Positions 25 through 55,857 of a stretch of 64,000 nt of DNA are shown in pieces. The notes beneath the pieces were generated by a model. It was not told where the DNA came from. It saw only the letters and a program-made list of their open reading frames with translations, and did no database searches. How positions within the stretch are numbered: position 1 is the stretch's first letter; each line of letters starts with the position of its first letter. The position numbers were made by a program, and so were the translations under genes. The stretch is from Squalus acanthias (taxonomy: Eukaryota), in contig CM059432.1 in assembly GCA_030390025.1 (NCBI GenBank), forward strand, positions 28,398,001 through 28,462,000, given 5' to 3'.

Positions 25-462
25 TCTGGCGCATTAGGTAACACATTCATCTCAGAATGAGAAGGTTGCAGATTCAAGTCACACTCCAGGACTCGAGCAC
101 ATAATCGAGGCTGATACTCCCGTGTACGACTGAGGGAGTGCTAAATTGCCAGAGATGCTGTCCTTCGGCTGAGTCATTAAACTGCCTGCTCCAGTTAGCC
201 AGCTGATCAATAAGTTTCCATCGCGCTATTTTTTAAAAAAGCCAGAAGGTTTCCCTGGTATTCTTGTAAAACATTCCCTCCCTTCAAGCAAATGTTCATT
301 CACCTCAGTACTATTTATGGGATCCTTTGGAGTACAAAATGGCTGCCACATTTGCCTACATAACAGTCACCACATTTCAAAGTCATCCAGTGTATGTAAA
401 GTGTTTTGAGATGTTTCTGAGAGTTGTGATAGGGTATTAATTAAATACATTTCTTTGCTTCT
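25..462 (+). mobile_element. Deu-domain tRNA SINE (SacSINE1/AmnSINE1-like), diverged
   Basis: Colinear with the intact copy at 48285-48762. Confidence 0.75.
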
Positions 463-479
463 TGTGATTTTTAAAAAAG

Positions 480-1490
480 ATTCATTCTTGGAATATGGGC
501 ATCGCTGGCAAGGCCAGCATTTATTGTCAATTCCTAGTTGCCCTTGAGAAGGTGGTGGTGAGCTTTCTTCTTGAACTGCTGCAGCCATTGTGGTAAAGGT
601 GCTCCCACTGTGCTGTTAGTGAGTTCCAGGATTTTGACCCAGTGACAAAGAACAGTGATATATATCCCAGTTGGGTTGATCAGTGACTTGAAGGGGAAGT
701 TGGAGTTTCCAGTCATCTGCTGCTCTTCTAGGTGGTGGACGGCGTGGATTTGGGAAGAGCGGTCAAAGAAGCCTTGGTGACTCGCTGCAGTGCATCCTGT
801 ATACAGTGCACACTCAAACCACGGTACACCGGTGGTGGAGGATGTGGATGTTTAAGCTGGTGGATGGGAATCAAGTGGACTGCTTTGTCCTGGATGGTTT
901 CAAGCACCTGTAGTATTGTTACAGCCATCTAGGCAAGTGGGGAGTATTCCATCACACTCCTGACTTCTGTCTTGTAGGTGATGGAGAGGCTATGGGGAGT
1001 CAGGAGGTGATCCACTTGGTGTAGAATACCCAGACATTGACCTGCTCTAGTAGCCATGGCATTTATGAGACAGGTCCAGCTGAGTTTCTGGTCAATGGTG
1101 ACCCCCCCCAGGATGTTGATGGTGAGGAACTCTGCGATGGTAATGCCACTGAAACTCAAGGGGAGGTTGTTAAGCTCTCTCTTATTGGAAATAGTTATTG
1201 CCTGGCACTTGTGTGGCACGAATGCTACGTGCCACGTATCAGCCCAAGCCTAGATATTGTCCAGGTCTTGCTGCACACAGGCATGGATTGCTTCATTATC
1301 TGAGGAATTGAGAATGGAGCTGAACATTGTGCAATCATCAGCAAACAGCTTCATAGCTGACTTCATAATGGAGGGAAGGTCATTGTTGAAGCAGCTGAAG
1401 ATATATGGGCCTAGGACGCTGCCCTGAGAAACTGCTGTAGCGATGTCCTGTGGCTGAAATTATTGGCCTCCAAGGACCACAAACATCTTC
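480..1490 (-). mobile_element. 3' part of the tRNA-headed LINE family (RT C-terminus plus tail)
   Basis: Reverse complement matches 53900-54870 (TINILGGVTIDQKL, HHHLLKGN tail). Confidence 0.85.
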
Positions 1491-1494
1491 CTTT

Positions 1495-2860
1495 GCCCAT
1501 CTTTCCCGCAATTCCATGTTTGAATCCCTCCAATCAGGTTTCTGCCCTTGCCACAGTACCAAAACGGCTCTCATCAGTCACAAATGACATCCTCTGTGAC
1601 TGTGACAAAGATGAAGTATTCCTCCTTGTCCTTCGACACGGTTTACCACTCCATCCTTCCCCAACGCCTCTCCACCGTTGTCCAGCTGGGTGGGACTGCA
1701 CTCGCTTAGTTCCATTCTTATCTATCTAATCGTAGCCAGAAAATCACTTTCAACGACTTCTGTTCCCGCTCCCACATTGTTACCTCTGGTGTCCCCCAAG
1801 GATCTATCCTTGGCCTCCTCCTATTTCTCATCTACATGTTGCCCCTTGGTGACATCATCCAAAAACAGTGTCAGTTTCCACATGTACGCTGACGACACCC
1901 AGCTCTACCTCACTACCTCTTCTCTTGACTCCTCCACGGTCTCTAAATTATCAGACTTCTTGTCCGACATCCAGTTCTGCATGAGCAGAAATTTTCTCCA
2001 ATTAAATATTGGGAAGAACTAAGCCCTGCCACAAACTCTGTTCCCTAGCCACAGACTCCATCCCTCTCCCTAACATCTGTCCGAGGCTGAACCACACGGT
2101 TCGCAAACTTGGTGTCATATATGACCCTGAAATGAGCTTCCAACCACATATCTGCAGCATAACTAAGAGCGCCTATTTCCACCTCTGTAACATCGCCTGT
2201 CTCCGCCCTTGCCTCAGCTCATCCACTGTTGAAACCCTCATCCATGCCTTTGTTACCTCTAGACTTAACTATTCCAACGCATTCCTGGCTGGTTTCCCAC
2301 ATTATACCCTATGTAAACTTGAGGTCGTCTAAAACTCGGCTGCCCGTGTCCTAACTTGGACCAAGTCCCGTTCACCCATCACCCCTGTACTCGCTGACCA
2401 ACATTGGCTCCCCATTAAGTAACGCCTCGATTCCAAAATTCTCATCCTTGTTTTCAAATCCCTCCATGGCCTCGCCCCTCCCTATCTCTGTAATCTCCTT
2501 CAGCCCCACAACCCCCCACCCCGAGATATCTGCGCTCCTCCAATTCTGCCCTCTTGAGCATCCCTGATTATAATCGCTCAACCATTGGTGGCCGTGCCTT
2601 CTGTTGCCTAGGCCCGAAGCTCTGGAACTGCCTGCCTAAACCTTTCCGCCTCTCTACCTCTCTTTCCTCCTCTCTACCTCTCTTTCCTCCTTTAAGACGC
2701 TCCTTAAAACCTACTTCTTTGACCAAGCTTTTGGTCACCTGCCCTAATTTCTCCTTATGTGGCTCGGTGTCAAATTTTTTGTCTTTTAATACTCCTGTGA
2801 AGCGCCTTGGGACATTTTACTACGTTAAAGGCGCTATATAAATACAAGTTGTTATTGTTT
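1495..2860 (+). mobile_element. L2 LINE 3' fragment
   Basis: FHMYADDTQLYL and ETLIHAFVTSRLNYSNA motifs; tail aaggcgctatataaatacaagttgtt. Confidence 0.9.
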
Positions 2861-3184
2861 GCGCCAGGTATGACACAATGATGTATTGCAATGGGTTGAA
2901 ATGGGTTGATAAGAAGATATTTCACCTTAGTATGTGGCAGAATGTACCTCAAGATACTCGTCGCTGCCTTCTTACGAGCAGTAACCCCAACTTTCTCTCT
3001 GCTAACCTTCCTGCCCAGCAGTGCATGAAATATCTCCGTGCATACGTGTTTGTGGCTGGAGTGTCTCAGTGCATGGAGTGTCTGTTTTACAAATTGCAAA
3101 TCTAGCAAAGCTTAGTTTAAGCATGAGACAGACAGTTGCTAGAGTGCTGATAACAGCCATGGCTACTGAACAGCACAATAGATG

Positions 3185-5269
3185 TATTCTGTTGCTTAAA
3201 CGTTTATTGTCTATTTAAAAAAAAAACACACTTTAGTGAATTGTTTTATACACAGAAATGAAATGAAATGGGGAGGAACTTCAGCTTCCAGAACTTTATA
3301 CACATAAGCCAAATATACACTTTTTTGAGATATACACTTACAGTCAACACACATTCTGATAGCACACAATTCTTTTGTTGTTCTAGTTCATGTGTTTCTG
3401 AACAACAGCAGCTGAGTATTCTGGCCGAGTAAAAAATAGTGAGGCCCCCCGCAATACTGTACACCTTATAAACTGATTTTATTTGCACTGCCATCAAATT
3501 TCATGTCTTTCTTTTAATATAACTACAATTTGTGGTTGTTGCACAGAGTATGATTGCAGGTGTTGGTGCCACTGAGCCGTTTCCGGTACAGCCACTCGCA
3601 GGAAAGCCCTTACGGGTTGCTGCACGCAAACTCCCGATTCAATGCACTTTCTGGACTCCACTTATTTTGCATGCCCTTAATTTTAAGCACCAATTTGAGA
3701 AACAAGTAAATTATGGGTATACAAAACACGTGTTTTTTGGGGGGGGGGGGGGGGGGGGGGGAGAAAGGATGGAAGGAGGTCTACAGCACAGATGGATGAA
3801 TTTTGTTTGCGTATTCTCCTACCTGCCTGCGACTGGTGCTCGGGTCCAAAATGCAGCGTGAAAATTTGCTCCATGGAGGTTGATGATACTTCCCAAAGTA
3901 ACTGGGGTGCAAGTGGTCTATTTACAAGCCAACCTCTCAGTTTAGGTGCTGCACAGTATATTGTTATATAGAATGAGATTATACCGTACAAAGCTACAGA
4001 CTCATCATAACGGAGGAGCTCAAATCCTTGGGGATTGTGTACAGTTTTGTGAACTGATCTCAGATCTGGGTGGGTATAAAATAGTGAGGTCCCCTGCAAT
4101 GCTGTCACCTCATAAACTGATTTTATTTGCACCACCGTTAAGTTAAGTCCTTCGCTAATTACAATAAGTTTGTGGTCGTTACACTGGTGATTCCATGTCT
4201 TAGACCGTGGTACTGAAACCAATGGATCCCACAGTCAGATTTTTCACCAGGAAGTTGGCCCTCAATGAAGCCCCGTTTCCTCCGCCTCCCCTTCTTACTC
4301 TCAAAAAGCCAGAAAATTTCAATATATTTCATTATCTTCCTCAGTCACAATCTGTGCAAATAGACAGGGTTTTTTTTTTCTCTCCAAATGAGAAAGTAGT
4401 ACTGTGTTGAGAATTCACAGAGGATTTATGGTTTGACCGCTGGGAACTACAGGAGATGGGAAGTCGCCTGTCCACGTTGCGGGAATGAGTATTCCTTTCT
4501 AAACTGCGCCTGGGGCAAGTAAGTTGAGCCTGCACTTTGCCGACCTACCACAAAGAACATAATGAATATCACTGCAGTGATTGAAAACAGGCTCAATTTG
4601 GCCCCATAATCTGCTCATTTCTGCATTATTTCATTGCCTATCAGACAATTCAGCTGTCAACTGGGAAAGTGATCGTTTTCCAGTACCTGACTTCAGGAGC
4701 AGTACTCTTCTGATGTGTTTCTAGCCTCTGTGGTAACAAATGCTAGAGTCACTTACTCCTAATAACAAAAAGCTGATGACCCCATCTGTGTTATCCTACT
4801 TCCATTGCTCATTTAGCAGCCAAGAGTCCTTCCACACTGTTACTAAGGAATTCACGACCAGCTAGGAAGGAGTGTGTGCACACTTGATCAGTGATTGTGA
4901 TGCTCTCTGTACTATATATGCATGGGGTCACAACATAATGGGGTCACTTTATGCTGACAAGTGCTGTGAATGAAAGTGAAGCTCTGTCTTAAGCTTGATG
5001 TTGTAGGATACCTAAAAGGTCCATATTTTCAGTTCAAGCCACTTCTTTTCCTCCAAATTTGCTATTAGAACTTAAATCCTTCTACACACAAGTTGTAGAA
5101 ACATTAGCTCCTCAATGGTTCCATTCTGCTTCCGCTGTGTGGTTTTCAGTCTGCTCCATTCCTTTTCCGCCACCCCCTTCCCACACTCAACAACTTGTCG
5201 CTTGTCGTTGTTAACGTGGCCCCTCCCTCTACCCCCCCTCCCCCTTACACCCCACCAATCATTGTCTTC
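3185..5269 (-). other. PHF20L1: Probable 3'UTR with AATAAA signals at 4122-4127, 3478-3483 and 3203-3208
   Basis: Repeat-free sequence downstream of the stop, with minus-strand AATAAA hexamers. The actual 3' end cannot be determined. Confidence 0.55.
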
Positions 5270-9467: not shown

Positions 9468-11011
9468 ACGCTGCAGGAGTTCCTCAGGGCAGTGTCCAAG
9501 GCCCAATCATCAATGACCTTCCCCCCATCATAAGGTCAGAAGTAGGGATGTTCGCTGATGATTGCACAGTGTTCAGTTCCATTCTCAACTCCTCAGATAA
9601 TGAAGCAGTCCGTGCCCGCATGCAGCAAGACCTGGACAACATTCAGGCTTGGGCTGATAAGTGCAAATAACATTCGCGCCTCACAAGTGCCATCTCCAAC
9701 AAGAGAAAGTCTAACCACTTCCCCATGACATTCAATGGCATTACCAATCATTGAATCCCCCACCATCAACATCCTGGGGGTCACCATTGACCAGAAACTT
9801 AACGGGACCAGCCACATAAATACTGTGGCTACAAGATCAGGTCAGAGGCTGGGTATTCTGTGGCGAGTGACTCACCTCCTGACTCCCCAAAGCCTTTCCA
9901 CCATCTACAAGTTACAAGTCAGGAGCTTGGATGAGTGCAGCTCCAACAACACTCAAGAAGCTCGACACCATCCAGGACAAAGCAGCCCACTTGATTGAAG
10001 CCCCATCCACCACCTTAAACATTTACTCCCTCCATCACCAACGCATCGTGTCTGCAAGGTATATCATCTACAACATGCACTGCAGTGACTCGCCAGGGTT
10101 TCTTCGACAGCACCTCCCAAATCCGCAACCTCTACCACCTAGAAGGACAAGGGCAGCAGGCGCATGGGAACACCACCACCTGCAAGTTCCCCTCCAAGTC
10201 ACACACCATCCTGACTTGTAAACATATCACCATTTCTTCATCATCGCTGGGTCAAAATTCTGGAACTCCCTCCCTTGCTACCCAGAGTGCTTCTTCCAAG
10301 TGGTGCTCAACATGGAGGAGTACTGATTCATCAGCTGAGGGAGGCTGTGGGTGGTAATCAGCGGGAGTTTTCCTTGCCCATGCTTGAGACTTCATGGGGT
10401 CCGGAGCCAATGTTGAGAACTCCTAGGGCCAATGCTTCCCGACGGCACAGCCATCTCTGGTGGGTCTGTCCTGCCGGTGGGACAGGACATACCCAGGGAT
10501 TGTGATGGAGGAGTCTGGGACATTGGATGGTATGATTCTGTGAGTATGACTATGTCAGGCTTGACTAGTCTGTGGGACAGCTCTCCCAATTTTGGCACAA
10601 GTCCCCAGATGTTAGTGAGGAGGACTTTTCCGTGTTCGAATCCAGTGCCTAGGTCGATGCCAGGTGGTCCATCCGGTTTTATTCCTTTTGTTTTTGATAC
10701 AACTGAGTGGCTTGTTAGGCCATTTCAGAGGGCAATTAAGAGTCTACATTGCTGTGGGTCTGAAGTCACATATAGACCAGATCGGGTAAGGGCGGCAGAT
10801 TTCCTTCCCTAAAGGACATTAGTGAACCAGATGGGTTTTATGACAATCCAGTAGTTTCATTTCTGATACTAGTTTTTTATTTCAGATTTATTTAATCAAC
10901 GGAGTTTAAATTCCACAGATGCTGTGGTGGGATTTGAACTCACGGCTCTGGATCATCAGTCCAGGCCGCTGGATTACTGGTCCAATAACATAACCACTAT
11001 GCTACCATTCC
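9468..11011. mobile_element. Rearranged tRNA-headed LINE: RT segment on + (9468-10274); tRNA head and APE on - (10275-11011)
   Basis: MFADD region on +. On -, the tRNA head runs into the endonuclease N-terminus NIWGLVPKLGELSHRLVKPDIVILTESY. Confidence 0.85.
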
Positions 11012-29240: not shown

Positions 29241-29504
29241 ACATGATGTGGAGATGCCGGTGTTGGACTGGGGTGGACAAATGTGAGAAGTCGCACAACA
29301 CCAGGTTATAGTCCAACAGCTTTATTTGAAATCACAAGCTTTCGGAGCTGCTGCTCCTTCGTCAGGTGAAGTGAAGCGATGCATATAGGAGATGCATATA
29401 TGCATCTCTTCACTTCACCTGATGAAGGAGCAGCAGCTCCGAAAGCTTGTGATTTCAAATAAAGCTGTTGGACTATAACCTGGTGTTGTGCGACTTCTCA
29501 CATT
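29241..29504. mobile_element. Penelope-like palindromic element with hammerhead-like cores
   Basis: 110-bp inverted arms (29278-29387 / 29397-29506, 2 mismatches); 11-bp TSD tggtttattag; CTGAYGA-AGGAGC-AGCA-GCTCC-GAAA on both strands. Confidence 0.8.
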
Positions 29505-31657
29505 TGGTTTATTAGTGGGGGAGGGGGGGGGAGAGTGAAGGGGGAGAATTCTGTCACTTACATCATGGTTTGACTAAGACCCAAAGATACACGGGGGGGG
29601 GGGGGGGGGTGAAATTGGTCTTCGCCAGTAGTGCGAAACGGGCCCATATTCTTGGACAAGAAAATCCGGCACAGTGTAAAACGAGCTGTCGATTTGCTAT
29701 GAGTCCATTTCACTCGACTAGCATAGACCCATTTCACCTCCATTGACTCAATATAAATGAACACACATGAGTGAAACAACACTGGTAGACAACATATAAC
29801 TTCTAAACAAAATATTGCAATAATGCTCTAAGTGGCAGGAGCTGCAGGCAGTTTGCATTAATGAGGGTGCTCAGCAAAACAAGATTCAGCATTAAGTCTG
29901 TCATACTGGCAGGTGTACAAATACAATTTTCAGTAAAATCCACTGCAGTGCTGTTGCTAATCATGCACTACAGCAACAAATGCACTTAAAGGGAAGGAAC
30001 TAGTGGAGCTAGTTTTTATTCAAGGTACTTTTTACTTTCAAAAAAATAATTGTGCTGACCAAGGTAACAGATGATAGTACTAGGAAATAGGACAGTTTCC
30101 ACTTCAGGCAACCAGTATCAGCATCAAGCACTCCCATGTCAGGTACAGCAAAGCTAGATGTAGAATAAAGCTCCCCCTCTCTGATCCAACCATAAACTGA
30201 GAAGAGTAGCTCCTAGTGTGATGTTTCCCCCCATTTTTTGACACCAACCATCCCTAGTCCTGTATGAATGACATTGCCAGTTAGTACCAAGTTCAGGGCA
30301 GTTTAGTGTTGCTGGCTCCACTGGGAAATGCATTGAGACTTTCTAAACTCATTTCTCAAAGGACAGCCAGGGAAGGGACTTTGATACTCGTCCCGGCTGG
30401 ATTTGAACCCTTGTCCCAGAGATGAAAGGTGGCCTGTACTCTGCCTTGTTAATGCAAGAAAAAAAATATAAACTCATCTTGCATTTATTTGTCGCTTTCT
30501 TAAAATTTCAATATTCCCGACAGCATGAAGGACCCTCAAGTGGGCTTTCATTCCCATCTGACCACCCCAGGTGATGCCAATTCTGGGTGTTCCAGACCAG
30601 CTCCACTAGTGGGGGTGCAGAAAGAGAAGTGTGTCTCACCCCAGGAAACCATGTTACAGCCTGGGAAATTTTGATTTCCCCTTGTTGCTAATGGAGCCAC
30701 TTGAAGGTGCTCCCAATAATCGTCATAACTGGAGTGGCCGAGCAGGGAGGGAAGCTCTAGTTGAGTTTTCATGCCAGCAGGGAAACAAACACAACAACTT
30801 GCATTTATGTGGCGCTTTTAACGTAGAAAAACATCCCAAGGCGCTTCACGACATGGGTTTATAATTTTCAATGCTTTTCCTTTCATTTAAGCTTCAATGC
30901 TGTGATGACTCATTTCTTATTCCAATTTCTCCCCTCCTCTCCTGAAGGTGTAAACTCTCACCGGGTACAGTTTCACAGATGCCAGCAGCCCCAGCCCCAC
31001 CCCCATACCCTGGTACACCGTTCTACACGTGCGAGTCTAAACAGTGAGTATCAGCACATTATTCAATACAGAGGGCATCGATACTATCCTCATCCAATAT
31101 CCACACATGCACATTTTTCTAGCAACAGTCATTGGATAGCATTGGGGCAAGGAGGTGGGGGCAGCAGCCTATATCATTTCTCCACCCCCTCTCTCCCCTC
31201 TTCCAAGCTTAGGGATGAGGAGGCCATTTGGGATGCCCAAGTAGGGCCCTAACTGAGATCAACCAGATCAGACTGAGGATCAAGCTTTGATTTGCGTTCT
31301 TTAGCATTATACCGGGTGCAGCTTGTATCCACTAGGCTATCGGAATAATATGGTTCTCTTAATTAATCAGTTCAAATTGCTGCCACTGCTAGTGACACGA
31401 ATATTTCACCAGTGTTGTACAGTTCAGAACACTCTACACAGAGGCAACCCAATTTTGGAAGGACAAAACCTATTAAAAGTGTTTTCTATGGTTCATGTAT
31501 ATTGAACAAAAAGATCAAACACCACTACACTTTACTGAATTCCCAGTGACAACACTAGCACAGGCAGGTCGTTTTTGTACCAGTGTTATGTTTGAAAGCA
31601 TAAATACACCCCATTTTATACAACACTTCAGATATTGGGTTTTGGCTTATAGTAGTC

Positions 31658-32195
31658 GGGGTACGGTAGCATAGTGGTTATGTTACTGGACTAGTAATCC
31701 AGAGGCCTAGACTAATGATCTGGAGACGTGAGTTCAAATCCCACCACGGCAGCTGGGGAATTTAAATTCAGTTAATTAAATAAATAGTGTCAATAATGGT
31801 GACCATGGCGAGGTGGGGGCAGCAGCCCTAATCATTTCTCCACCCTCCTCTCCCCTCTTCCAAGTTTAGGGATGAGGAGGCTATTTGGGATGCCCAAGTA
31901 GGGCCCTAACTGAGATCAACCAGATCAGACTGTTGATAAAAACCTATCTGGTTCACTAATGTCCTTTAGGGAAGGAAATCTATCGTCCTTACCTGGTCTG
32001 GTTTATATGTGAGTCCAGACCCACAGCAATGTGGTTGACTCTTAACCCTCTGAAATGGCTTAGCAAGCCACTAAACTGCTACTACAGCAGTTCAAGAAGG
32101 CAGCTCACCACCACCTTTTCAAAGCAATTAGGGATGGGCAATAAATGCTGGCCTTGCCAGCGACGCCCACATCCCAGGAACGAATAAAAAAAAAA
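31658..32195 (+). mobile_element. tRNA-Thr-like SINE with LINE-derived tail and poly(A)
   Basis: Box A tagcatagtgg, anticodon arm ctgga-ctAGTaa-tccag, box B gagttcaaatcc; tail nearly identical to 54760-54870. Confidence 0.88.
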
Positions 32196-49537: not shown

Positions 49538-51210
49538 TTATAGAATCATAGAAAGTTACAGCACGGAAGGAGGCCATTTCGGCCCATCGTGTCCTCGCCG
49601 GCCAACAAAGAGCTATCCAGCCTAATCCCACTTCCCAGCTCTTGGTCCGTAGCCCTGCAGGTTAGAGCATCCCAAGAGCACATCCAAGTACTTTTTAAAT
49701 GTGGTTATGGTTCCTGCCTCTACCACCCTTTCAGGCAGTGAGTTCCAGACCCCCACAACCCTCTGGGTGAAGAAATTTCCCCTCAAATCCCCTCTAAACC
49801 TTCCCCCAATTACTTTAAATCTGTGCCCCCTGGTTTTTGACCCCTCTGCTAAGGGAAATAGGTCCTTTCTATCCACTTTATCTATGCCCCTCATAATTTT
49901 ATACACCTCAATAAGGTCTCCCCTCAGCCTTCTCTGTTCCAAGGAAAACAGACCCAGCTTATCCAGTCTTTACTCATAGCTAAGATTCTCTACTCCCGGC
50001 AACATCCTTGTAAATCTCCTCTGTACGCTCTCTTGTGCAATCACATCTTTCCTGTAATGTGGTGACCAGAACTGCACGCAGTACTCTAGCTGGGGCCTAA
50101 CTAGTGTTTTATACAGTTCAAGCATAAACCCCCTGCTCTTGTATTCTATGCCACGGCTAATAAAGGCAAGCATTCCGTATGCCTTCTTAACCACCTTATC
50201 TACTTGGCCTGCTATCTTCAGGGATCTGTGGACATGCACTCTAAGGTCCCTTTGTTCCTCTACACTACTCAGTGTCCTACCATTTAATGTGTATTCCCTT
50301 TCCTTGTTAGCCCTCCCCAAATGCATTACCTCACACTTCCCCAGATTGAATTCCATTTGCCACTGTTCTGCCCACCTGACGAGTCCATTGATATCTTCCT
50401 GCAGTCTACAGCTTCCTTCTTCAGTATCAACCACACAGCCGATTTTAGTATCATCTGCAAACCTCTTAATCATACCCCCTATATTCAAGTCAAGATCGTT
50501 GATATATACCACAAAAAGCAAGGGACCTAGTACTGAGCCCTGCGGAACCCCACTGGAAACAGCCTTCCAGTCACAAAAACACCCATCCCCTTTGCTTCCT
50601 GTCTCAGCGCCAGTTTTGAATCCAACTTGACACTTTGCCCTGGATCCCATGGTCTTTTACTTTCGTGACCAGTCTGCCATGTGAAACCTTATCAAAAGCC
50701 TTGCTAAAGTCCATATACACTACATCAAATGCACTACCCTCATCTACCCTCCTTGTTACTTCCTCAAAAAATTCAATCAAGTTTGTCAGACACGACCTTC
50801 CCTTAACAAATCCGTGCTGACTATCCTTGATTAATCCGTGTCTTTCTAAATTAAGATTTATCCTGTCCTTCAGAATTCTTTCCAATAATTTTCCTTTTCT
50901 CCCTTTTTAAACAAGGGTACCACATTAGCAGTCCTCCAGTCCTCCGGCACCACACCTGAAGCCAGAGAGGATTGAAAAATGATGGTCAGGGCCTCTTCTA
51001 TTTCCTCTTTTGCTTCGCTTAACAGCCTGGGATACATTTCATCCAGGCCTGGGGATTTATCCACTTTTAAAACTGCTAAACCCCTTAATACTTCCTCTCT
51101 CACTATGTTTATTTCATCTAATATTTCGCACTCCTCCCTCCCCCGATAGCAATGTCTGCTTCACCCCTCTCCTTTGTGAAAACAGACGCAAAGTATTCAT
51201 TAAGAACCCT
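49538..51210 (-). mobile_element. CR1 LINE 3' half, relatively young
   Basis: ORFs with VVYMDFSKAFDKV, GVPQGSVLGPLLF, FADDTK, LEYCVQFWSP; tail ctatgattctat. Confidence 0.93.
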
Positions 51211-51928
51211 ACTGATGTCATTACCAAACAGAAATATCCAAGTGGGGAAAACTTGCAGTTCTGCTGAAGATAGAGCCAATGTTCATAATTTTTTTTTTAA
51301 ATTGACAGTAAGTGCCTCCATGTGTACAATCTGGAGATATTTTACATAGAAGATCATACATCATTTGGACTCTGTCCCTGCTGAGAAGTTGCCACTGTGA
51401 TCCGATGGATCAAACACTGAGGACTTACAGCATTAACTTTGTCCCCTTCCCCATGAAGAGTTCTATTTTAACATAAACATCAGGTGCGAAGGATAGTGGG
51501 GCCCAATAGATTATAAAGCCATCAGCAACATTTTTTTTGACTGTGTTAAAACTGTACAACAGACAGAAGAATATAAGAGGGTGGGTGGAATGAGTGATGC
51601 CGCTTAAAGCAAACCCAGCTGGGTCGATGAAGAGCCAACACAACCACAGAGCATTTTATACGGTGCACAGTTGCAGCGTCACAACTTGAGGAGCGAGAAG
51701 AAAAACTGTTGAACCTTTTATATCTGCGCAAGGAATAACTCATGGGGCGAGGTGGGTGCATGGGCAGGTAAATCCTATGCATATTGACGGAGATTTTAAA
51801 TCATGTTCTACAGACTAGGTACAGATTCCAAATATACAGACTAGGTACAGATTCCAAATATGTATAAAAGCATTATCGGGAATGATACTGGGGCTTAGAG
51901 GGTTAATTTATAAAGACAGGTTGCCTAA

Positions 51929-54872
51929 GGGAACAGCAGCATAGTGGTTATGTTACTGGACTAGTAATCCAGAGACCTGGACTGATAAGCCAGAGCCGTG
52001 AGTTCAAATCCCACCATGGCAGCTGTGGAATTTAAACTCAGTTGATTAAATAAATCTGGAATAAAAAAAGCTAGTATCAGTAATGGTGACCATGAAACTA
52101 TCAGATTGTCATTCACTAATGTCTTTAGGGAAGGAAATCTGCTATCCTTACCTATGTGTGACTCCAGATCCACAGCAATGTGGTTGACTCTTAACTGCCC
52201 TCTGAAATGGCTTAGCAAGCCACTCAGTTGTACACAACCACTACGAAAAACAATAAGAAAAATAAATCCGGACGGACCACCCTCTGCACTGGCTTCAGAT
52301 ACGACAACGGCACGGGGGGAGTGGCCCTGGGAGTCCTCAACATTGACTCCGGACCCCATGAAGACTCATGGCTTCAGGTCAAGCATGGGCAAGGAAACAA
52401 CCTACTGCTCTCCCTCAGTACTCTTCCATGCAAGGGCACAAAATGTACTCTGGGTGGGGGACTTCAATGTCCATCACCAAGAGTGGCTCGGTAGCACCAC
52501 TACGAGCTGGCCGAGTCCTGAAGGACATAGCTGCCAGGTGGTGAGAGAACCAACACGAGGGAAAAACCTACTTGACCTCGTCCTCACCAATCTACCTGTC
52601 GCAGCTTTTGTTGGAAGTAGTGACAAAATCCCGTCTTCACACTGAGGACACCCTCCATCGTGTTGTGTGGCACCAGCACTGTGCTAAATGGGATAGATTC
52701 AGATCTAGCAGCTCAAAACTGGGCCATCAGCAGCAGAATTGTATTCCTTCCCAATCTGTGACCTCATGGCCCGGCATATCCCTCACTCTACCATTATCAA
52801 GCCAGGGGACCAACCCTGGTTCAATAAGGAGTGTAGAAGAGCATGCCAGGAGCAGCACCAGGCATGCAAATGAAGTGCCAACCTGGGGAAGCTGCAAAAC
52901 ATGACTACATGCATGCTAAACAGCGGAAGCAGCATGCTATAGACAGAGCTAAGCGATCCCACAATCAACGGATCAGATCAAAGCTCTGCATTCCTGCCAC
53001 ATCCAGTCGTGAATGGTGGTGGACAACTAAACAATTAACGGGAGGAGGAGGCTCTATGAATATCCGCATCCTCAATGATGACAGAGCCCAGCACGCGAGT
53101 GCAAAAGACAAGGCTGAAGCGTTTGCAACCATCTCAGCCAGAAGTGCTGAGTGGATGATCCATATCGGCCTCCTCCTGAGGTCCCCACCATCACAGAAGC
53201 CAGTCTTCAGCCAATTCGATTCACTCCACGTGATATCAAGAAACAGCTGAGCGCATTGGATACAGCAAAGGCTATGGACCCGGACAACATCCCAGCTGTC
53301 GTGCTGAAGACTTGTGCTCCAGAACTAGCCGCGCCTCTAGCCAAGCTGCTCCAGTACAGGTACAACACTGGCATCTACCTGACAATGTGCAAAAGGGCCC
53401 AGGTATGTCCTGTCCACAAAAAGCAGGACAAATCCAATTATCGCCAAATCAGCCTACTCTCAATCATCAGCAGTGATGGAAGCTGTCATCGACAGTGCTA
53501 TTAAGCGGCACTTACTCAACAATAATCTGCTCACCGATGCTCAATTTGGGTTCCGCCAGGACCACTCGGCTCCAGACCTCATTACAGCCTTGGTCCAAAC
53601 ATGGACAAAACAGCAGAATTGCAGAGGTGAGGTGAGAGTGACTGCCCTTGACATCAAGGCAGCAGTTGACTGAGTGTGGCATTAAGGAGCCCTAGTAAAA
53701 TTGAAGTCAATGGGAATCAGGGGGAAAACTCTCCACTGGCTGGAGTCATACCTAGCACAAAGGAAGATGGTTGTAGTTGTTGAAGGTCAATCATCTCAGC
53801 CCCAGATCAATCATCTCATCTCCAACAAGCGAGAGTCTAACCACCGCTCCTTGATATTCAACGGCATTACCATCGCTGCATGAGTTCCTCAGGGCAGTGT
53901 TCTGGGCCCAACCATCTTCAGCTGCTTCCTCAATGACCTTCCCTCCATCATAAGGTCAGAAGTGGGGATGTTCGCTGATGATTGCAGTGTTCAGCTCCAT
54001 TCGCAACTCCTCAAGATAATGAAGCAGTCCATGCCTGAATGCAGCAAGACCTGGATGACATTCAGGCTTGGGCTGATAAGTGGCAAGTAACATTCACGCC
54101 ACACAAGTGCCAGGCAATGACTACCTCCAACAAGCGAGAGTCTAACCACCGCCCCTTGACAGTCAACGGCATTACCATCGCCGAATCCCCAACCATCAAC
54201 ATCCTGGGGGGGGTCACCATTGACCAGAAACCTAACTGGACCAGCCACATAAATACTGTGGCTACAAGAGCAGGTCAGAGGCTGGGTATTCTGCAGCGAG
54301 TGTCTCACCTCCTGACTCCCTAATTCCACCATCTACAAGGCACAAGTAAGGAGTGTGATGGAATACTCTCCACTTGCCTGGATGAGTGCAGCTCCAACAA
54401 CACTCAAGAAGCTCGATACCATCCAGGACAAAGCAGCTCGCTTGATTGGCACCCCTTCCACCACCTTAAACATTCACTCCCTCCACCACCAGCGTACCGT
54501 GGATGCAGTGTGTACCATCTACAAGATGCACTGCAGCAACTCGCCAAGGCTTCTTCAGCAGCACCTCCCAAACCGCGACCGGAACCACCTAGAAGGACAA
54601 GGGCAGCAGGCACATGGGAACACCATCACCTGCAAGTTCCCCTCCAAGTTACACACCATCCTGACTTGGAATTATATCGCCGTTCCTTCATCGTCGCTGG
54701 GTCAAAATCCTGGAACTCCCTTCCTAACAGCACCGTGGGAGCACCTTCACCACACGGACTGCAGCGGTTCAAGACGGCGGCTCACCATCACCTTCTCAAG
54801 GGCAATTAGGGATGGGCAATAAATGCTGGCCTTGCCAGCGACGCCCACATCCCAGGAACATATATAAAAAAA
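51929..54872 (+). mobile_element. tRNA-headed LINE (CR1/L2 group), head to poly(A), internally deleted
   Basis: tRNA-like head; APE (GDFNVHHQEWL, REPTRGKNLLDLVLTN); RT (ALDIKAA, VPQGSVLGP, MFADD); tail and poly(A). Interrupts a contiguous CR1 fragment. Confidence 0.9.
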
Positions 54873-55857
54873 CTTGGCTCGTATTCCCTTGAGTATAGAA
54901 GATTGAGGCATGATCTGATCAAGGTGTTTAAACTGTTAAAAAGATTCAATAGGGTAGATACAGGGTAACTATTTCCTCTGGTAGGGGAATCAAGAACGAC
55001 GGGATATAATCTTAAAATTAGAGCTTGGCCATTCAGGAGCGAAATCAGGAAGAACCTTTTTACACAAAGGGACAGGATAAATCTTAATTTAGAAAGACAC
55101 GGATTAATCAGGGACAGTCAGCATGGATTTGTTAAGGGACGGTCATGTCCGACTAACTGAGGAGGTAACAAGGAGGGTCGATGAGGGTAGTGCGTTTGAT
55201 GAAGTTTAAATGGATTTTAGCAAGGCTTTTGATAAGGTCCCACATGGCAGACTGGTCACGAAAGTAAAAGACCATGGGATCCAAGGCAAAGTGGCAAGTT
55301 GGATCCAAAATTGGCTCAGAGGCAGGAAACAAAGGGTAATGGTCGAAGGGTGTTTTTGTGACTGGAAGGCTGTTTCAAGTGGGGTTCCGCAGGGCTCAGT
55401 ACTGGGTCCTTTGCTTTTTGTGGTATATCTCAATGATTTGGACTTGAATGTAGGAAGTATGATTAAGAAGTTTGCAGATGATACAAAAATTGGCCGTGTG
55501 GTTGATAATGAAGAAGAAAGCTGCAGACTGCAGGAAGATATCAATGGACTCGTCAGGTGGGCAGAACAGTGGCAAATGGAATTCAATCTGGAGAAGTGTG
55601 AGGTAATGCATTTGGGGAGGGCTAGCAAGGCAAGGGAATACACTATAAATAGTAGGACACTGAGAAGTGCAGAAGATCAGAGGGACCTTGGAGTGCATGT
55701 CAGGACTGGGATTGATAGATTTTTGTTAGGTAAAGGTATCAAGGGATATGGAGCTAAGGCGGGTAAAGGGTAGTTCAAGTACAGATCAGTCATGATCTAA
55801 CTGAATGGTGGAACAGGTTCGAGAGGCTGAATGGCCTACTCCTATTCCTATGATCCT
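54873..55857 (+). mobile_element. Composite CR1 fragments (RT segment 55071-55702 within another CR1 3' end)
   Basis: 187-aa RT ORF MDFSKAFDKVPHGRL...FADDTK. Confidence 0.88.

Follow-up and report, generated by a model that had tools for sequence, protein, structure and literature searches.

The locus at 51929..54872 and related sequences in the window

The window, by which we mean the whole 64-kb stretch of DNA that was analyzed, harbors on its forward strand a decayed near-full-length copy of a tRNA-headed single-ORF LINE (51929..54872), delimited by alignment to the family majority sequence. The copy starts with a tRNA-derived head (51929..52020, the right edge being approximate), continues through a body with four predicted hairpins (52127..52230), in which an in-frame AUG at 52207 is followed by stops, and retains a broken single APE-RT frame (52234..54809; RT core 53213-54257, stop 54807-54809) and a 3' UTR (54810..54872) comprising an AATAAA (54818-54823), a predicted hairpin, and the A-tail. 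The preliminary description had proposed one insertion running from a tRNA-like head through a UTR and APE/RT coding sequence into poly(A), and this is borne out by a weak tRNA match, by boxes A and B, and by the Pfam domains RVT_1 and Exo_endo_phos found in a less broken natural copy (L082). Script-computed comparison with the family majority gave 2704 identical positions out of 2871 aligned nt (94%) and 439 deleted nt; reference nt 420-653, the APE N-terminus, are deleted, and 18 frameshifting indels disrupt the frame. With these deletions and frameshifts, the copy is dead. Inside it, 59 nt of a downstream RT segment were also found duplicated (53818-53876).

The element lies within an older CR1 fragment on the forward strand, the left half of which (51886..51928, left edge approximate) was read against a separate CR1-type copy of the window (6629-6530, reverse strand), and the right half of which (54873..55070) was aligned by tblastn to a CR1 control (50% over 66 aa, E 4e-19). 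Read against the copy at 6629-6530, the two flanks form one continuous CR1 fragment, as had been claimed. Any target duplication is at most 0-3 nt and could hide in the A-tail. Inverted CR1 copies, ~90% identical to each other, bracket the element (50231-50868 and 55070-55701).

An independent second copy with the same head running into APE, likewise claimed earlier, was recovered on the reverse strand at 10272..11011, where head, body, leader, and APE N-terminus (reference nt 2-831) are abutted by an inverted RT/C-terminal piece of the same family on the forward strand (9469..10275; reference nt 2312-3167). In this arrangement (9469-11011), a 5' piece is joined to a tail-less inverted 3' piece, an order unfit for twin priming, so it is likely to result from a later rearrangement. 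Two short forms are present on the forward strand: a SINE-like form in which the head and body are followed by the 3' tail and ~137 nt are inserted locally (31659..32190), and a 5'-truncated form with, as judged by eye, a diverged type-2 body, which ends in AAT-TTT-AAAAA (20367..20607). The insertion in the former (31843-31940) is a 93%-identical duplicate of 31186-31283, located 657 nt upstream. A near-perfect inverted repeat with arms of 110 nt and a spacer of 9 nt was additionally observed at 29278-29506.

Features of the tRNA-like head and the body

The match of the head to the tRNA profile reached 21 bits (E 0.077) with a 21-nt insertion, which falls below the profile cut-off of 29 bits, and ARAGORN reported no tRNA over the 64-kb window. 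Box A (51937-51947, the first base of which is changed from T to C in this copy) and box B (52002-52010) are both recognizable on the forward strand. The 21 inserted nt duplicate the anticodon arm in tandem (51956-51972, with the duplicated arm at 51977-51993, forward strand), and the spacing between boxes A and B is 21 nt longer in most copies; head variants with a single anticodon arm are also present in the family. When one anticodon arm was removed and the head was compared with four isotypes of the same genome's tRNAs, we obtained 47/73 identities to tRNA-Thr(AGT), 46/72 to tRNA-Gln(CTG), and 44-46 to the Lys and Cys isotypes. Judged from these alignments, the tRNA source is ambiguous, the head being about equally close to tRNA-Thr(AGT) and tRNA-Gln(CTG); the tRNA-like character assigned in the preliminary description stands, and its assignment to Thr does not. 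Long tandem arrays of tRNA-Gln-like and tRNA-Lys(TTT) genes were observed (G000:C21 ~3.34-3.41 Mb, G000:C2208, C29), with CTG/TTG motifs alternating approximately every 600 nt in the Gln-like arrays and the Lys arrays repeating approximately every 1.8 kb.

The family start is sharp at GGGAAC, which corresponds to the tRNA 5' end and provides a fixed +1. In the body hairpins, three subfamily variants preserve pairing as G-U and one breaks a weak pair, and no common compensatory change was found in them, the support being one-sided only. A home-made descriptor, run without a positive control, retrieved no HDV-like double pseudoknot in the family or in four relatives. By eye, the body exhibits a short, weak likeness to BivaMeta-SINE1, the Meta element used for comparison, and no likeness to the two UCON3 rows inspected. 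In starting with a tRNA head that has boxes A and B, the family shows a SINE2 feature; the short and non-coding character of that class is found in the short forms only, the long form encoding APE-RT.

Linkage between the head and the LINE body

Searches were conducted on 3.7 Gb of genome. A junction query comprising only the body end and the APE start yielded 9663 first-look candidates, of which 40 were scored and 30 fetched. The preliminary description had singled out headless copies, an intervening ORF1, and differing junctions as observations that would speak against it; we found the same junction with the head upstream in 28 of the 29 non-self loci selected in this way (displaced by an insertion in one of them), and no ORF1. 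Out of 29 non-self loci selected by the head, 21 run into the leader/ORF, six are short forms with head, body, and tail, one passes into the last 500 nt, and one stops early. Selection by RT, for which 40 of 150 listed matches were taken (20 of them by rank and 20 for their long open frame), produced 15 loci extending to the head, five ending in the body or linker, and 20 that stop or are broken up at a more 3' point. From the best 67 matches we fetched the 19 least-broken APE+RT copies, which are colinear up to scattered truncation points, their 5' starts lying at nt 1, 1, 1, 3, 53, 68, 134, 184, 208, 261, 270, 280, 324, 343, 343, 347, 351, 352, and 426.

Among 58 upstream flanks, junction-abutting sequence was common to one pair only (L085/L100), and neither an alternative shared 5' end nor an ORF1 was detected. 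The modal leader length is 153 nt. Across 60 copies, Bonferroni correction leaves 14 of 132 site pairs in which head and ORF variants are linked. In contigs from the coded organisms B, C, and D, the body is bridged to the leader or APE, and those from F and G show joints across a divergent linker. When we looked for an older LINE subfamily devoid of the head, what came back was a second subfamily of this family, three of whose 30 loci contain head pieces. The tRNA-derived head is an integral, fixed part of this LINE family. Because fragments of the family, with 67-87% identity, occur in three gene models named for two sharks, we refer to it as shark-type. One of these, a shark aldo-keto reductase gene model (P0002), includes ~215 residues of the family ORF at 85%, through either misprediction or exonisation.

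A single frame lacking an initiator Met and its coding constraint

Over its 3310 nt, the majority element has a single frame running from stop to stop, 973 codons long (nt 330-3251). The single ORF sought in the preliminary description was recovered in this majority sequence, and none of the best 67 matches is a full-length intact copy. Its UTR of "~300 bp" is revised to 329 nt if the non-coding 5' part is counted up to the stop preceding the frame, and to 440 nt if counted to the first APE motif. The first Met of the 973-codon frame is residue 287, past the APE domain, so translation would start at a non-AUG codon. The frame opens with a basic leader 37 residues long that has no Met; a similar basic stretch, there beginning with a called Met, is present in several homologues. 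Nine ATGs precede the APE motif and none opens the long frame, which would be awkward for scanning, and no open AUG-to-APE frame was found in the majority sequence or in the copies inspected.

Two candidate solutions were rejected. The in-frame AUG at nt 303 runs into TAG/TAA in 39 of 55 leaders, usually with a second stop six codons on, and it was dismissed as a start given that these stops follow in most copies and that type-2 bodies have GTG in its place. A -1 frameshift from an upstream 76-codon frame is contradicted by one subfamily with a stop in that frame. An apparent 874-aa open frame in one copy (L081) proved to consist of a tandem repeat to which the RT half is fused.

With CpG-type changes excluded, variants common to at least four of 38 copies comprise 31 synonymous and 19 non-synonymous changes, versus 355 and 897 among private variants (p=1.7e-6). 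The second subfamily differs by 27 synonymous and 13 non-synonymous changes and contains neither a stop nor a run of four T (T4). Coding constraint on the leader was not supported (2:4 vs 11:45, p=0.60). The mostly synonymous nature of the variants shared among copies indicates that the frame was under purifying selection and that the headed form was formerly autonomous. The earlier proposal of an autonomous single-ORF element with a tRNA head hence gains support from the common junction, the 973-codon frame, the synonymous excess, and the head-ORF linkage.

Placement among CR1-group elements

The family is placed with the non-LTR CR1 group by the common frame of its APE and RT and by its 3' A-tail. 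In an RT tree of 28 rows, it falls into a 99/98 clade with single-frame metagenome elements, and the classic CR1 of the host, used as a control, lies in a separate clade (96/90). The family therefore differs from classic two-ORF CR1 elements both in this separate RT clade and in having no ORF1 upstream. The RT phylogeny suggested in the preliminary description groups the family with Zenon-like rows in the 99/98 clade, yet places it outside their 96/95 subclade, in a tree built without a labelled Zenon reference. The APE of one relative (P0004/L211) matches that of Zenon-1_Hmel by eye (Fig. S3 of PMC6740152, as far as that source was available), and the single ORF is a feature shared with CR1-Zenon. 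The family protein retrieved no relative from metagenomes, and P0004 as query retrieved distant relatives only.

Invertebrate relatives of the family are also APE-RT single-frame elements, and upstream of four relatives, on contigs that may be 5'-incomplete, no tRNA/Rfam match was found. From these comparisons, the absence of ORF1 is likely ancestral to a CR1-Zenon-like clade rather than novel, and the tRNA head is likely a derived feature. The preliminary description had regarded the missing ORF1 as unusual, a view that is not supported, given that the relatives are single-frame as well and that single-ORF CR1/L2 elements have been published, namely ZfL2-2 (PMC4176376, in excerpt) and lepidopteran CR1 (PMC6740152). 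ZfL2-2 is an active vertebrate LINE, likewise with one ORF, but it belongs to the L2 clade, measures 4.2 kb, and has a 5' UTR containing repeats (same excerpt). CR1-Zenon (Zenon-1_Hmel)/Persaeus resembles our family in its single APE-RT frame, its length of ~3.3 kb, and its A-tail (Wang et al. 2019, PMC6740152), and Persaeus also in being a short derivative that joins the 5' region to the ORF end and 3' UTR; unlike the shark family, Persaeus is stated to have neither tRNA homology nor a Pol III promoter (PMC6740152). The relatives further differ by a Met near the APE start and by 7-24 T4 runs. For the whale shark, a CR1-Zenon-like class has been reported, with no head mentioned in the accessible portion of that report (10.1101/443036).

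Depletion of T runs and structure of the 3' end

The majority sequence contains no T4 in its 3310 nt, compared with 14 A4, 11 C4, and nine G4. In 19 real copies (57 kb), T4 occurs four times and A4 246 times, and the flanks of those copies (24 kb) have 109 T4 and 106 A4. Within the ORF, synonymous permutation revealed five T3 runs where 11.2 were expected (P=0.0045) and one window with four T out of five where 9.4 were expected (P=0.0055); the zero T4 count alone is not significant (P=0.12 by synonymous permutation, 0.19 by dinucleotide shuffle). The 329-nt non-coding head region, with 26% T, has no such window at all. The host CR1 control contains 11 T4 and exhibits no depletion, and six invertebrate relatives have 7-24 T4 each. 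Two headless ones among these relatives are also somewhat depleted of 4-of-5-T windows (P=0.001 and 0.005), yet hold 24 and 15 T4. Part of the pattern could come from a general strand bias, as the ORF has little T (19%) and much C. The Phe content of the family protein (1.8%) is the lowest of 90 proteins (the others ranging over 2.0-6.5%), and a selective loss of conserved Phe sites was not found (15 of 20 kept, p=0.48).

At the 3' end, 70 of 76 long copies retain an intact AATAAA. Before the tail, the boundary T-run of these 76 copies consists of one T in 35, two in nine, and at least three in 25 (at least four in 15 of these), with seven unscored; by comparison, three T occur at the interior GAATAAAAA site in 1/75 and four in 0/75. 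The check for oligo-T terminators proposed earlier thus returned none in the interior of the majority sequence and a variable T-run before the A-tail. T+ SINEs are defined by AATAAA plus a T terminator before the A-tail (PMC12984919, in the part available), an ending found in part of our copies, as expected where terminators are variably truncated. The same partial source notes, for old copies, that T-runs beside A-tails may grow after insertion, and the boundary T-runs next to long A-tails may likewise have expanded post-insertion. A headless relative (L212) also ends in GAATGAATT-poly(A).

Short SINE-like forms

In a survey of loci picked by one such junction, the body/tail joints of short forms recur near 328/3188, 340/3178, and 346/3182 (first-reference numbering). 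The diverged type-2 head/body is 89% identical to the LINE head, and of 30 type-2 loci none runs into APE and 27 run into the tail, a bias that could reflect a SINE-first order; some type-2 copies (L276, L306, L318) still have a handful of bases resembling the linker, together with longer ORF ends. A SINE older than the LINE was not supported, type-1 and type-2 differing little in age (0.904 vs 0.918 identity to their own majority). On our reading, the short forms likely arose by repeated internal deletions of headed LINEs; at the root, the LINE may instead have captured the head of a SINE.

We also observed that a 7-nt stretch at the leader start (reference ~332-338, window ~52236) is complementary to ~3205-3211 (window ~54765), near the ORF end, and that the commonest type-2 joint brings both stretches into one hairpin. 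On account of this joint, long-range pairing may guide the deletions.

Transcription of the family and alternative explanations

We consider it probable, at roughly 0.65, that the family represents a formerly autonomous single-ORF CR1-Zenon-like LINE with tRNA-headed full-length copies that were likely transcribed end to end by Pol III. The use of Pol III is suggested by boxes A and B at a fixed +1, by the T4-free sense strand, and by an AATAAA that, together with a T-run of variable length, precedes the A-tail. Weighing against it are the 21 nt added between boxes A and B in most copies, the non-significant T4 count, the window depletion seen in headless relatives, the GAATGAATT-poly(A) ending of L212, and the nine ATGs ahead of the APE motif. 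A more complete proposal, to which we give slightly better than even odds, would be an autonomous protein-coding retrotransposon made wholly by Pol III, combining a tRNA promoter, a terminator-purged 3-kb ORF, a 3' end in the style of T+ SINEs, cap-independent non-AUG translation, and SINEs produced by internal deletion. On the Pol III account in general, the polymerase would initiate at the first G of the head, read through 3.3 kb owing to the purging of terminators from the sense strand, and stop in the terminal T-run; polyadenylation via AAUAAA would follow, as for the RNAs of T+ SINEs, and the added poly(A) tail would serve target-primed reverse transcription. The weakest step would be translation of an uncapped RNA, starting within the short basic leader at a non-AUG codon, a step that the body hairpins might perhaps assist. 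In reporters, Pol III RNA can be translated, and the output rises when internal TTTT is removed (PMC8223928, in excerpt). The short forms, arising by repeated internal deletions, would remain mobile in trans as they retain the promoter.

An autonomous headed LINE transcribed by Pol II, through cryptic elements in the head or body or by read-through, would leave the head as a passenger and the T-poverty as a strand bias or an avoidance of U-rich signals. We regard this explanation as unlikely. In its favor, the absence of T4 is by itself not significant, the 3' AATAAA fits Pol II equally well, translation would be easier from a capped RNA, and the use of Pol III promoters by Pol II figures in the title of a reference cited in PMC8223928. 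It is less compatible with the sharp +1 at the tRNA 5' end, with a depletion of T clusters that exceeds codon usage and is absent from the host CR1, with the variability of the terminal T-run, and with a non-coding head region devoid of 4-of-5-T windows despite its T content.

Considerably harder to sustain is a scenario in which the headed form is a non-autonomous chimera moved in trans by a headless master with its own 5' UTR and an AUG or ORF1. It would explain why no in-frame AUG reaches APE in the majority and why no open AUG-to-APE copy was found, and five of the 19 good copies do start at nt 343-352; the upstream flanks of those five are unrelated, however, and the synonymous excess of shared variants and the head-ORF linkage across subfamilies both oppose it. 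Chance chimeras of a SINE beside a LINE, conceivable for two parts abundant enough to give thousands of first-look candidates, are refuted by the identical junction across loci with its modal leader length and by the linkage of head and ORF variants.

Relation to known systems and implications

The shark family shares with T+ SINEs (B2, Dip, Ves, Can, and rabbit C1) a head derived from tRNA that contains boxes A and B, and, ahead of the A-tail, AATAAA and a T terminator truncated to varying degrees; those SINEs are short, non-coding, and, according to the available part of PMC12984919, known from placental mammals alone, whereas the shark element measures 3.3 kb and encodes APE-RT. RTE-1_DAn and elements related to it are LINEs with tRNA-like sequence (one sentence in Kojima 2018, PMC5786205), but of the RTE clade. 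Helenus and Cassandra TRIMs also captured a Pol III promoter in a non-SINE retroelement, but they are non-autonomous LTR elements without protein (PMC10886601, in part). In cartilaginous fish, HE1/HER1, SacSINE1, and SINE2-1_CM/CR1-2_CM associate a tRNA SINE with a CR1-type LINE through a common 3' tail (PMC3747384, in part); in that source these pairs are listed as sharing tails and not heads. Our literature search found no description of the family or its architecture, which may nevertheless be catalogued in Repbase or Dfam.

Reviews assign LINEs to Pol II and SINEs to Pol III (PMC10886601, PMC5786205, both in excerpt), and non-LTR retrotransposons are stated to be Pol II-transcribed (PMC10886601, same excerpt). 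The family described here is real, and translation appears to be the weakest link of the Pol III account. If that account is true, the divide between Pol II for LINEs and Pol III for SINEs would be erased, and a LINE grown to high copy number on a Pol III promoter would show that, in a vertebrate, uncapped transcripts of Pol III can yield a 970-residue enzyme. Codon use could evolve to escape Pol III terminators, and AAUAAA-dependent polyadenylation of Pol III RNA would extend beyond placental mammals. Finally, a SINE could be born by simple deletion of its partner LINE, with no separate capture of a head.
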